Shown here piece after piece: positions 25,101 to 26,607 of a stretch of DNA of 64,000 bases. Made by a program: the position numbers and the translations under genes. Origin of the DNA: Candidatus Binatia bacterium (GTDB lineage: Bacteria > Methylomirabilota > Methylomirabilia > Rokubacteriales > CSP1-6); contig DASPZZ010000273.1 in NCBI GenBank assembly GCA_035635995.1, forward strand, positions 1,190-65,189, written 5' to 3'. Every line of letters begins with the position of its first letter. Positions within the stretch are counted from its first letter, which is position 1. The notes below the pieces were generated by a model. It searched no databases and was not told the origin of the DNA. It saw only the letters and a list, made by a program, of their open reading frames with translations.

Positions 25101-26607
25101 CGGGTATACGTATGACGCGGCCGGCCGCCTGGCGGGACTCACGGCTCCCGGCGGTCTCGGTCTTGCCAGGAGCTACGACGGATTCTTATTGACCGGCGAA
25201 TCGGCGAGCGGCGCCGTCACGGGCACGATTGCACGCAGTTACGACACTGCATTCCGGCTCACGAGTCAAGGCTTGAACGGCAGCGCCGTCACATTCGCCT
25301 ACGATGACGACGACCTGCTGACCCGGGCCGGCGCGCTCAATCTGACGCGCTCTCCTCAGCATGGACTCGTCACCGCGACAAGCCTCGGGACGGTCACGAC
25401 CAGCCGCGCTTATACGAGCTTCGCCGAACTCAGCCGCCTGAGCACTTCTGCGGGCGCCACGCTACTGTACGACGCGCAGTACACACGCGATTCGCTCGGC
25501 CGCATCACCGAGAAGGTCGAAGCCGCGGGCGGCGTCACCGACAGCTTCGCTTACATCTATGACCCCGCCGGACGGCTCGTGGAGGTCGGCAAGAACAGCG
25601 CGCTCGCCGAGAGCTACACCTATGACGCCAACGGCAATCGCACCAGCGTCACCGCCGCCGGCGCCACGCGTAATGCCGTCTACGACGCGCAGGACCGGCT
25701 GACGCAAGACGGCAGCACGATCTACACCTATACGGCTAATGGCGAGTTGACGAGCAAGACCGCCGGCGGCCAGACGACCACGTACAGCTATGACGCGCTG
25801 GGGAACTTGACGACCGTGAGGCTGCCGAACGGCGCTCAAATCGATTACCTGATCGATGGCCGAAATCGCCGCGTGGGAAAGAAGATGAATGGCGTACAGG
25901 TCCAGAGCTTCCTATATGCCGGCAACCTGGGCCCCATTGCCGAACTCGACGCGAGCAACAACGTGGTCAGCCGCTTCGTCTACGCCGAGAGCAACAACGT
26001 CCCTGCCCACATGATCAAGAACGGCACAACGTATCGTCTGATTGCGGACGACCTGGGTAGTGTCCGTCTGGTCGTGCACACGTCGACGGGCACAGTCGTC
26101 CAGCGGATCGACTACGATCCATGGGGCAACGTCGTGAACGACACCAACCCCGGCTTCCAGTCGTTCGGTTTTGCCGGCGGCCTGTACGATGCCGACACGA
26201 AACTCGTCCGCTTCGGTGCCCGCGACTACGATGCCGAGACAGGTCGATGGACCGCAAAAGATCCGATTGGCTTCGTCGGTGGAGATGCCAATCTATACGC
26301 GTACGTATCGAATGATCCCGTGAATGACGCCGACTCCGACGGACTCAAAGGGAAGACCGTAAACAAGAAAAAAACTTCGAGCAAAAAGGCTTCGAAGCCG
26401 GCAGGCGCGTGCAAGGCTCCCAACCTGGAGGTCGGGTTTGGCCCCATCGAATTCTTAGACGAGCCGCTCGAGGTCTGGGTTGGCGACATCGAATTCTTAG
26501 ACCAGCCGCCCAAGGTCGGGGTTGGCGACATCGAAATCTTAGAGAGCGACGGCAAACCGACTTCCGCTGAGGCATTCAAGTCATCGGCGGCCGGCATTAA
26601 AGGCTGA
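19120..26607 (+). CDS. giant secreted teneurin-like RHS/YD-repeat protein (polymorphic-toxin architecture)
   Basis: Track ORF of 2495 aa, GAGGAGG RBS, signal/anchor LTLVLVVALLLATAGILCAAE. Approximate nt ranges: IPT/TIG-like 19320-19560; five PKD/Ig-like repeats 19570-20990; transthyretin/carboxypeptidase-regulatory-like domain 21130-21390; plug-like region to 22680; six NHL blades 22690-23690; YD repeats and RHS core to 26346 (...DPIGFVGGDANLYAYVSNDPVNDADSDGL); 86-aa C-terminal tail. Confidence 0.95.
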   Translation: MSSGRQSARRLTLVLVVALLLATAGILCAAEIFTKERGAGEMSEAGGRGDDRGDDREDGREDGQKPQAVQIDSISPSSATPGELVTITGVGFGARNVRIAVGGIAAEVLTASGHSAKFRVPFGVRPGVTTVTVTNPGGHIGSIAFQVLNRVPQANAGPDQTVFVTSTVRLDGSASSDSDGDELSFHWSFLSRPSGSNAVLTDASAVRPAFVVDLPGRYAIRLIVNDGFADSQPDTVLIDTQNSPPVANAGPDQTVAVGATVQLDGSGSSDVDHDPVRFRWSFISRPAGSHATLTDETAPGPVFVADLSGRYVVQLIVNDGIVDSRPDTVTIDTRNSRPIANAGSAQTVLVGATVQLDGRGSSDVDGDPLMLRWSFVSRPTGSAATLSDPTAVNPTFVADATGTYVVQLIVNDGAVDSEAATVVVTANPRPVNQPPVVSAGPDKTVTLPGTATLNGSASDDGLPFGSVLTIGWSKASGPGVVIFANPSALQTSASFSVAGDYVLRLTASDGQLSSSDEVAVTVNAVNQAPAVDAGPDQTIRLPNTATLNGTVSDDGFPSGSTLTIAWSTVSGLGTVTFASPNTMSTTATFSTSGQYVLRLTASDGALSSSADVRVTVNPASGGEGLPPDPATVAPPVNPTIATDIRTSTEFLYTGANPIQTGVVPGTIEAKRAAVLRGRALTRDGVPLPGVRMTIVGRSEFGQTLSRADGMFDMAVNGGGFLTVRYEKAGFLPAQRQINVPWQDFAFLPDVVLIQLDSQVTTVDLSASVSIQVARGNPVTDADGTRQATLFFNQGTTATMVMPDSSMQALTTLNVRATEYTVGSNGPTAMPAELPPMSAYTYAVELSADEAIAAGAKTVNFSRPVIQYVENFLGFPVGMAVPVGFLDRERSVGFYNRDTSAWIPSDNGRVIRITGVSGGLATVDSVGTRSLPPLVLSTAELQQLATLYPTGQTLWRVPITHFTPWDYNWPYGPPPDLRAPRGNPVAADEPPDEDCNSTGSIIQCESQALGEERPVTGTPFRLIYSSDRMRGRAHGLNIPLTEADIPASLRRIELEISVAGQRFAQSFFATPNQSYNFRWDGKDAYGRNVQGGTLATVRIGYVYGVVYQEPAQFAQSFAVLSGIPPMATTLRRTAGGGEITIWRESTHHLESRSLHARAGSVGGWSLSLHHDYDPRIEVLYKGDGTRRDAQVIGAAIRTVAGNGVAVFGGDNGPATQAGLNSPHGITVAPDGSLYFTDQFNHRVRRIAPNGVITTIAGNGIAGFSGDGNLATQARLNFPSGVAVAPDGSIYFADTNNSRIRRVGSDGIISTVAGNGGEDFSGDGGSATQARLFDPSAVAVAPEGSLYIADRFNGRIRRVGPDGIIRTVAGNGNFGHLGDGGPATQAQLGFVEDVAVGPDGSFYIADEDRVRRVTPDGIINTVYNLSVLVRDGVTVLPAAATRPAGVTVAPDGSLYIADHNWNVIRLTVDGISVRAAGKSTFAYSGDGGPAIQAGLVNTVAVAVAPDGSFYIADKFNHRIRRVGSPLPGFSDGAFGVASEDGDEFYVFSELRHAQTINAFTGAVRYRFSYDTNGRLTAVTDGDGNVTTIQRDPSGNPTGIVAPFGQRTTLAVDANSYLSRIVNPAGEAFQFSYTADGLLTSSVDPNGNISRYTYDMRGALVRADDAAGGFKTLTRTEISNGHALVALQTALGRTTTYTVERLSSGARKRTVTDPSGAHAEIVIGPDGSRRTTDRDGTVTSLVFGPDPRWGMQAPVVSSLTVTTPAGLTRTVTGTRTATLANPSDPLSVLTQIETIAINGRTFTRRYDAATRTLTETSPEGRTRMMMLDAKGRVIQEQVNGREPTTYTYDARGRLSVVREGAGSAVRTSTLAYGSDGFLASLTDPLGRVTSFTRDAAGRPISRATPDGQTVAFSYDAGGKLASLTPPGRSAHSFSYTAVNLMSNYAPPNVGSGNTSTGYAYDSDRELTRVLRPDGQSVDLTYDSFGRLSTQADARGALGYTYDAAGRLAGLTAPGGLGLARSYDGFLLTGESASGAVTGTIARSYDTAFRLTSQGLNGSAVTFAYDDDDLLTRAGALNLTRSPQHGLVTATSLGTVTTSRAYTSFAELSRLSTSAGATLLYDAQYTRDSLGRITEKVEAAGGVTDSFAYIYDPAGRLVEVGKNSALAESYTYDANGNRTSVTAAGATRNAVYDAQDRLTQDGSTIYTYTANGELTSKTAGGQTTTYSYDALGNLTTVRLPNGAQIDYLIDGRNRRVGKKMNGVQVQSFLYAGNLGPIAELDASNNVVSRFVYAESNNVPAHMIKNGTTYRLIADDLGSVRLVVHTSTGTVVQRIDYDPWGNVVNDTNPGFQSFGFAGGLYDADTKLVRFGARDYDAETGRWTAKDPIGFVGGDANLYAYVSNDPVNDADSDGLKGKTVNKKKTSSKKASKPAGACKAPNLEVGFGPIEFLDEPLEVWVGDIEFLDQPPKVGVGDIEILESDGKPTSAEAFKSSAAGIKG
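26428..26553 (+). repeat. three tandem 42-bp repeats (in-frame, coding the 14-aa repeats of the RHS C-terminal tail)
   Basis: Read directly: gaggtcgggtttggccccatcgaattcttagacgagccgctc / gaggtctgggttggcgacatcgaattcttagaccagccgccc / aaggtcggggttggcgacatcgaaatcttagagagcgacggc. Confidence 0.9.

Follow-up and report, generated by a model that had tools for sequence, protein, structure and literature searches.

An 86-residue, repeat-bearing tail on a predicted bacterial teneurin-like protein, and the gene missing downstream of it

What does a large RHS protein carry when its C-terminal cargo resembles no recognized toxin and is followed by no immunity gene? The question is raised by a gene at positions 19120 to 26607 of a 64,000-nucleotide stretch of contig DASPZZ010000273.1, from a Candidatus Binatia bacterium (the whole stretch is here referred to as “the window”), the product of which ends in an 86-residue tail. 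An earlier note, made from the letters of the window, had described this tail as an unrecognized and very small cargo composed of a lysine-rich linker and three acidic repeats, and had considered it a novel effector, an adhesive or other nontoxic peptide, or a stump left when a transposon replaced a toxin-immunity pair. Here, we assign the gene, from its domain content, to the bacterial teneurin-like proteins (TLPs) and describe relatives that share its tail to the stop codon. On balance, we lean toward the reading that the tail is a cleaved, shell-enclosed, disulfide-tethered TLP cargo of a rare nonenzymatic C-terminal domain (CTD) family, the Cys-rich core and immunity gene of which are both missing here, so that the cargo is probably attenuated.

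TLPs are a class of polymorphic toxins described in 2026 by Raoelijaona et al. (Nat Commun, PMC13018210), in which a “superfold” of FN-plug, NHL, and YD-shell domains encloses a short, variable CTD. A cognate immunity gene lies directly downstream in “almost all” TLPs, a feature that is typical and not strictly defining (PMC13018210). Their characterization is recent, and the majority of their cargo domains lack annotation.

Architecture of the gene and predicted cleavage sites

The 2,495-residue protein begins with a signal peptide and continues through a TIG domain, five PKD domains, a TTR domain, a TIP-like region, an FN-plug, an NHL propeller, a YD shell, and an Rhs core to the 86-residue CTD. 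Pfam matches comprise TIG, K319L-like_PKD, and RHS_repeat, together with the teneurin models TTR_TEN1-4 (E = 7.7e-26), FN-plug_TEN1-4 (E = 2.9e-11), TEN_NHL (E = 9.7e-42), and TEN_YD-shell (E = 3e-47), and the best matches of the gene in the PDB are the entries for BiTLP of Bacillus inaquosorum (9pt5 and 9ifo). We assign the gene to the bacterial TLPs because of these teneurin-specific models and this best structural match. Both the TTR domain and the TIP region are represented, with residues ~901 to 994 of the window protein aligning to BiTLP residues 619 to 719; the TIP region was judged by this alignment. Metazoan teneurins align to the window protein only from about residue 998 onward. The parts of the gene that bear on the tail are as follows.

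19120-26607, plus strand: predicted TLP gene, 2,495 residues (Pfam architecture and best PDB matches)
19120-19209, plus strand: putative N-terminal Sec-type signal peptide, residues 1 to 30 (MSSGRQSARRLTLVLVVALLLATAGILCAA/E), containing C28 (read from the sequence)
22099-22128, plus strand: FN-plug loop C994-N-S-T-G998/S999-I-I-Q-C1003, predicted N-terminal autoproteolysis site (gapless BiTLP alignment)
26221-26346, plus strand: Rhs-core aspartyl-protease motif, R2368 ... D2381-PIG ... D2405-SDG-L2409 (gapless BiTLP alignment, TIGR03696)
26347-26427, plus strand: Lys-rich linker of the CTD, 27 residues with 9 Lys, pI 10.6, including C2431 at 26410-26412 (sequence)
26428-26553, plus strand: three 42-bp repeats encoding the 14-residue acidic units EVGFGPIEFLDEPL, EVWVGDIEFLDQPP, and KVGVGDIEILESDG (Tandem Repeats Finder, alignment with relatives P0001 and P0121)
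26533-26604, plus strand: conserved C-terminal motif EILESDGKPTSAEAFKSSAAGIKG (common to the other two tails and to a block in SH3-like proteins, P0123 and the L112 open reading frame [ORF])

Both autoproteolysis motifs are conserved. The RHS-associated core (NCBIfam TIGR03696, E = 7.8e-22) ends at ...YVSNDPVNDADSDGL, with L2409 encoded at 26344 to 26346. Residues R2368, D2381, D2405, and L2409 align without gaps and at identical spacing to R2103, D2116, D2140, and L2144 of BiTLP; the second protease motif reads DSDGL instead of DPxGL and retains the catalytic aspartate. In the FN-plug, C994-NSTG998/S999 aligns gaplessly to PDDDC719-NKEG723/S724 of BiTLP, for which both FN-plug cleavage and a C719-C2216 disulfide have been described (PMC13018210). 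We predict cuts after L2409 and between G998 and S999. At the N terminus, a lipoprotein reading was rejected, there being no canonical lipobox around C28.

The tail comprises residues K2410 to G2495 (26347 to 26604; 9.0 kDa), and its translation after DSDGL is exactly as the earlier note had transcribed it. Beyond the linker, the three acidic units hold 12 Asp/Glu residues in all (pI 4.05) and are followed by a 17-residue end. The repeats themselves are borne out by Tandem Repeats Finder, which detects a 42-bp unit in 2.9 copies at 26428 to 26547 (86% matches, score 177), far beyond chance. They had also been described as conspicuously AT-richer than the rest of the gene, which does not hold in that form: their GC content is 58.7% versus 63.8% for the gene, and their GC content at third codon positions (GC3) is 0.79 versus 0.76, since the difference lies at codon position 2, that is, in amino acid composition. 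Three of the seven TTA codons of the gene fall in the repeats. Translation of the repeats in another frame was rejected because synonymous change with amino acid conservation supports the annotated frame, and a PEP-CTERM or sortase-type sorting signal was rejected because there is no C-terminal hydrophobic segment.

As the earlier note had supposed, the tail belongs to no recognized toxin family. It matches no known polymorphic-toxin CTD family (Ntox/Tox), none of the three tails of the family described below has a Pfam or NCBIfam match at E ≤ 10, and a profile of the three finds no PDB sequence at E ≤ 10. The grand average of hydropathicity is −0.42, and the tail is without a hydrophobic or amphipathic segment. 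It appears too small and too repetitive for an enzyme and, if active, would act by binding or at the cell envelope.

Support for the assembly across this region, which had been recommended as a check, was found in Logan contigs from two runs on different soil samples and studies. These show 0 differences from the window over 25900 to 27700 (run X1) and 25900 to 26950 (run X2), and at the contig level the tail and the DNA that follows it are not an assembly artifact. The assembly index has no record of the exact 2,495-residue protein, and no RNA runs contain the region. Both soil runs also contain contigs of 210 nt, with a depth about double the local one, that match the window at 25959 to 25989 and 26139 to 26167 with 149 different letters between; the communities that harbor the window allele therefore contain a second RHS/TLP core related to it.

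To place the tail among those of other TLPs, we took the 120 best relatives of the final 418 residues and located the tail in the 107 for which the core end was found. These tails have a median length of 114 residues (range, 12 to 171), with 20 of the 107 between 80 and 100 residues, and are mutually unrelated except for one near-identical pair. The CTD of BiTLP has 92 residues, and the average TLP CTD is about 15 kDa (PMC13018210). At 86 residues and 9.0 kDa, the tail fits the short, hypervariable CTDs (~15 kDa or less) of this class and is of ordinary size for a TLP, not unusually small as had been thought.

The cysteines of these proteins follow a pattern. The window protein has four: C28 belongs to the signal peptide, C994 and C1003 lie on either side of the FN-plug cut, and C2431 is the one in the tail, which leaves three in the mature protein, two of them in the FN-plug loop. 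Among the 107 relatives, 101 have cysteine in the tail, 98 have an odd number (binomial p = 5e-20 versus chance), and 63 have exactly one, while their cores contain 0.04% Cys; a C-x3-G-S-x3-C pair in the FN-plug is common in full-length relatives. In the one BiTLP structure, C719, the equivalent of C994, is disulfide bonded to a CTD cysteine, which surprised its authors (PMC13018210). Because odd-cysteine tails, nearly Cys-free cores, and the C719-C2216 bond coincide, we suggest that a disulfide tether from CTD to FN-plug is a general TLP feature, with C2431 serving in this role here. The tether may be a conserved part of how TLPs hold or release cargo.

Relatives of the tail and the missing downstream gene

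Two other proteins end in the same tail. P0001, a metagenomic TLP fragment from contig L001, aligns with the whole of the 418-residue query, tail included, at 70% identity, and P0121, a metagenomic TLP fragment on contig L082, was found by exhaustive HMMER search (E = 4.9e-7) and shares the tail to the stop codon. With the window protein, these constitute a family of three members, drawn from searches across billions of proteins. The exhaustive search covered 1.84 billion representatives, one protein per 50%-identity cluster, among which variable tips on RHS cores can hide, and P0001 was not returned by it. A word-indexed search with the tail alone returned nothing and, with the three-tail profile, only P0123, a protein considered below. 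Patterns of tail peptides run against genome and metagenome contigs gave no confirmed relative, and a genome scan with core plus tail gave 80 TLP/RHS loci, none with the window tail. One further HMMER match, P0122 (1,022 residues), was rejected, its six “SVGPGVGTT” Ig-like repeats being a low-complexity match to the VGxG unit, and what looked like tail extensions in L007, L011, and L013 are tails without relation to this one.

The three tails, which are 50 to 70% identical to one another, share a plan: a Lys-rich linker, one invariant cysteine (C2431, the only tail cysteine in the window), a (D/E)VG.GPIE unit, one or two further VGVG-x-I-x-h-I-D units, and an invariant end, SDGK...AEAF.S..A..K(A/G). 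Written as VGxG-x-I-x-h-h-D, the units number one to three. The repeat period is 14 residues in the window and 18 in P0121. Both relatives carry a four-cysteine segment (C-x-D-x-E-C-x3-C-x4-C) between the first and the later units, where the window has its middle repeat and no cysteine; each relative has five tail cysteines, which fits four in this mini-domain plus the invariant one.

Selection has acted on this sequence. By the Nei-Gojobori method, the ratio of nonsynonymous to synonymous substitution rates (dN/dS) in the tail is ~0.17 between the window and L001 and ~0.26 between the window and L082, similar to that in the core, and the last motif of the tail has been retained through many synonymous changes. 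Homology between the window and L001 at the DNA level passes the stop codon and continues for ~40 nt. Because two other TLPs share the tail to the stop codon, dN/dS is ~0.2, and the 3' homology continues, the tail reads as an inherited coding end under purifying selection and not as a stump made by insertion. In L082, at positions 150 to 185, a 5-nt insertion (…CACCTAG-ACTAG-GCAGC…) creates a stop in the conserved DHLGSVRLVV segment of the P0121-bearing TLP, which is either a pseudogene or affected by an assembly error.

The end of the tail also occurs in proteins of another kind. Its last ~20 residues (EILESDGKPTSAEAFKSS...) match a highly conserved internal block of secreted SH3-like proteins of ~170 residues. 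One of these, P0123 (168 residues, bearing a signal peptide and weakly matching SH3_3), was the hit of the three-tail profile at E = 0.95, which is not significant database-wide; over its residues 96 to 113, 16 of 18 positions agree with the window tail. Independently, a search of DNA with a degenerate pattern for SDGK-x3-AEAF-x-S returned 37 loci, of which L112 was real and the other 36 were chance. The ORF on L112 (612 to 1121) is homologous to P0123 (49% identity, E = 1e-30), and the end of P0121 matches it at 17 of 20 positions, with 13 contiguous identities and an exact AEAFKSSGAATKA, eight of the identities lying outside the search pattern. The DNA of the block shared by P0121 and L112 differs at synonymous sites, and the peptide motif itself therefore appears to be under selection. 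On one contig, the P0123 gene and a Peptidase_M48 gene have a 4-nt overlap. P0123 has no match in plasmids or in the PDB, and AlphaFold2 modeling of the SH3-like pair (predicted local distance difference test [pLDDT], 43) was too poor for a fold search. The shared motif is a lead to a binding partner.

Downstream of the tail, we distinguish the following features.

26605-26645, plus strand: stop codon and ~40 nt of 3' sequence that aligns with L001 (similarity ceases at the start of the L001 downstream ORF)
26646-26872, no strand: noncoding spacer with no identifiable feature, at the place where an immunity gene would be expected (no coding signal; no Pfam, NCBIfam, or Rfam match; no terminator)
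27001-27312, minus strand: intact gene for an HTH_37 (HigA-like) antitoxin (Pfam HTH_37, E = 9.3e-22)
27320-27583, minus strand: decayed gene for a Gp49/HigB-like toxin, frameshifted and ~79 nt shorter than in run X4 (three-frame translations; Pfam Gp49, E = 1.2e-5 on read-through)

The absence of an immunity ORF from the 390 nt after the gene, as reported before, was confirmed. There is no credible ORF between 26608 and 27000: the three candidates, at 26634 (plus), 26597 (minus), and 26791 (plus), have GC3 values of 0.52 to 0.68 and no family match, and they do not show the pattern of real genes in the window, in which GC3 far exceeds GC at second positions and reaches 0.77 to 0.93. Scans of 26300 to 27800 for Rfam families, terminators, and repeats returned nothing relevant.

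L001 does have such an ORF. A called gene begins 36 nt after the TLP stop codon (MSFAVASPVGNGYIGVDLLAVGFVLLLLSAIDF...), with GC values of 0.61, 0.46, and 0.85 at codon positions 1, 2, and 3 and a hydrophobic segment; because it stands where TLP immunity genes lie, this small membrane-protein ORF is a candidate immunity gene. The earlier note had named two observations that would tell against its description, a match of the tail to a known toxin family by hidden Markov model search and an overlooked immunity gene, recognizable as a conserved small ORF after the same tail in orthologues. The former did not materialize at E ≤ 10. The latter is borne out in L001 to the extent of this coding-like, hydrophobic ORF, while in the window the gene is absent and was not overlooked. 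In L082, the TLP gene is followed next by part of a gene for a molybdopterin oxidoreductase, which lies on the other strand. Among related loci, L006, L010, L016, and L017 have tightly coupled downstream ORFs and others have none. In two Methylococcaceae metagenome-assembled genomes (L003 and L004), the space 3' of the TLP genes is taken up by repeats resembling repetitive extragenic palindromes, whose translation reads ...IRVYRGPETRITLRSIRAT..., with no obvious immunity ORF.

What follows the spacer in the window had been taken for transposon remnants. We found no transposase (Pfam) and no terminal inverted repeats downstream of the TLP gene; the region is instead a decayed toxin-antitoxin (TA) cassette that spans ~26873 to 27660 and starts ~265 nt downstream of the TLP gene. 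The Gp49-like toxin lies upstream of the antitoxin on the minus strand and is readable only across frames, with 42 letters in the window versus 121 in X4 at the joint between 27437 and 27480, and a promoter-like site is present near the toxin gene at 27617 to 27589. With its toxin in pieces, the cassette is not the tandem of intact toxin and antitoxin ORFs that would constitute a type II TA system. Groundwater and soil metagenomes contain the same cassette at roughly 93 to 95% identity with different flanks, and because of these differing flanks we regard it as a mobile module.

The wider neighborhood of the TLP gene comprises a BTAD-AAA-TPR regulator, a permease, a DinB protein, and an aminotransferase. 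The TLP gene has a GC content of 0.638 and GC3 of 0.76, against 0.70 to 0.73 and 0.92, respectively, for the adjacent DinB_2 and aminotransferase genes (27921 to 29562), and its closest relatives (55 to 65% identity) span many phyla, among them Chloroflexota, Bacteroidota, and Myxococcota, as well as Methylococcaceae. Because its GC3 is well under that of its neighbors and its closest relatives are so scattered, the data are consistent with horizontal acquisition. A protein of 1,072 residues with BTAD, AAA_16, and TPR domains is encoded divergently at 15552 to 18770 (minus strand), 349 nt upstream, and is a candidate for regulating the TLP gene.

What the tail may be

Under the reading that we prefer, the TLP would be Sec exported, with TIG and PKD domains serving for its display. 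One cut, made by the Rhs aspartyl protease (R2368, D2381, D2405), would fall after L2409, and a second between G998 and S999 in the FN-plug. The freed 9-kDa peptide would remain in the shell, with C2431 tethering it to C994 or C1003 as in the BiTLP structure, and would be released at a target cell. Intact members of the family would presumably be toxic. Since the window has neither the four-cysteine mini-domain nor the downstream gene, its tail may represent a “disarmed” allele that can do without immunity. The locus would then be a probable case of a cargo core and an immunity gene lost together, and it adds to the TLPs a rare, nonenzymatic-looking cargo family that is new and small.

Several observations weigh against this reading. 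The reading frame and C-terminal motif are intact in the window, which fits a still-functional peptide. The family has three members with about equidistant cores, and either a loss of the four-cysteine segment in the window or its gain in both relatives may account for the difference. The L001 ORF runs into the contig end after 46 codons and lacks a homologue for comparison, L082 has no downstream ORF and a frameshifted TLP, such that the whole family could be decaying, and several relatives lack an obvious downstream ORF, so that absence alone is weak evidence. AlphaFold2 on the three-tail alignment gave a pLDDT of 53, a predicted TM score of 0.12, and no secondary structure, a model too poor for a fold search. 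Two FN-plug cysteines and one tail cysteine leave one unpaired under any scheme; speculatively, a free third thiol could permit disulfide exchange.

An intact frame, an invariant cysteine and C-terminal motif under purifying selection, and two intact autoproteolysis motifs would also be expected of a small effector that is active and does without an immunity gene, its target (for example, in a eukaryote or a distant phylum, or a surface receptor) being absent from the producer, in parallel with Tc-toxin cargos that have no immunity partner. Several related TLP loci likewise have no tightly coupled downstream ORF, and only three of nine tested CTDs were toxic to Escherichia coli, so that targets may be elsewhere (PMC13018210). 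However, the closest relative appears to have a small membrane ORF downstream, the window is without the four-cysteine segment common to both relatives, and the tail has neither a predicted fold, a hydrophobic or amphipathic segment, nor likeness to known toxins; we consider this account unlikely. We would place somewhat lower the possibility that the tail is a nontoxic tether or ligand peptide for adhesion, signaling, or recognition, the motif of which binds a partner, possibly the same as that of the secreted SH3-like proteins encoded beside an M48 peptidase gene. The sharing of the last ~20 residues with an otherwise unrelated family (16/18 and 17/20 positions) despite synonymous DNA divergence speaks for it, as do the overlap of the P0123 gene with Peptidase_M48, the lack of an immunity gene in both the window and L082, and the cell-cell communication role left open for TLPs (PMC13018210). 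Yet the M48 link comes from one contig, the P0123 match (E = 0.95) and its model (pLDDT, 43) are poor, and the CTD, which should lie inside the shell, would not be exposed (PMC13018210).

Lower again, and decidedly doubtful, is a combined proposal in which the odd CTD cysteine and the FN-plug cysteine pair form a redox-sensitive disulfide latch that is general in TLPs, and the cargo here is a contact-delivered signaling or decoy peptide, not a toxin, with its end (SDGKPTSAEAFKSS...) recognized as in the SH3-like proteins translationally coupled to M48; such a signaling or decoy cargo would need no immunity gene. Very improbable, finally, is the earlier note's third possibility, a truncation stump left after mobile DNA replaced a toxin-immunity pair. 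A mobile TA cassette (26873 to 27660) does lie ~265 nt downstream, with other flanks elsewhere, and the expected immunity gene is missing. Two other TLPs nonetheless retain the tail through its last residue and the stop codon, and L001 a further ~40 nt, which makes the coding end ancestral. Neither a transposase nor inverted repeats are present, dN/dS of the tail is ~0.2, and 50 to 70% tail identity argues against a recently spread truncated allele.

Comparison with known systems

Likeness to RTX-type repeats is superficial and consists of short Gly/Asp tandem repeats beside a conserved, unstructured C-terminal end; a reading of the tail as a type I secretion or RTX-like signal was considered and rejected. 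The period is 14 residues (18 in P0121) and not 9, there is no GGxGxDxUx motif and no Pfam match at E ≤ 10, the protein has an N-terminal Sec signal, and the tail would be cut off inside the shell. With the Rhs/YD toxins of type VI secretion systems (T6SS) and the TcB-TcC cocoons, the protein shares a YD-repeat shell closed by an Rhs core and a DPxG...DxxGL protease that releases variable cargo, as seen in matches to Rhs, Tse5, and TccC3. It differs in having a Sec signal and TIG and PKD adhesin domains in place of PAAR (absent from the Pfam scan), VgrG, or a TcA partner, in its teneurin FN-plug and NHL domains, and in a much smaller cargo of no recognizable fold, and no T6SS, PAAR, or Tc components are encoded nearby.

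Metazoan teneurins have in common with the window protein the TTR, FN-plug, NHL, and YD-shell domains, as detected by teneurin Pfam models and PDB alignment. They are without the cleavage motif and carry the domains ABD and Tox-GHH external to the shell (PMC13018210), whereas in the window the protease motif is intact and the tail bears no relation to either domain. Compared with BiTLP, the CTD sequence is unrelated: the BiTLP CTD is hydrophobic, with a predicted transmembrane segment, and permeabilizes E. coli from the periplasm (PMC13018210), whereas the window tail is polar and repetitive, a cationic block followed by an acidic one. The N-terminal adhesion modules also differ, and the window has a second FN-plug cysteine (C1003) and no downstream immunity gene. 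BiTLP and the window protein share the superfold of TTR, TIP-like region, FN-plug, NHL, and YD shell, both autoproteolysis motifs at aligned positions, a CTD of similar size (92 versus 86 residues), and a CTD cysteine available to pair with the FN-plug cysteine that aligns with C719.

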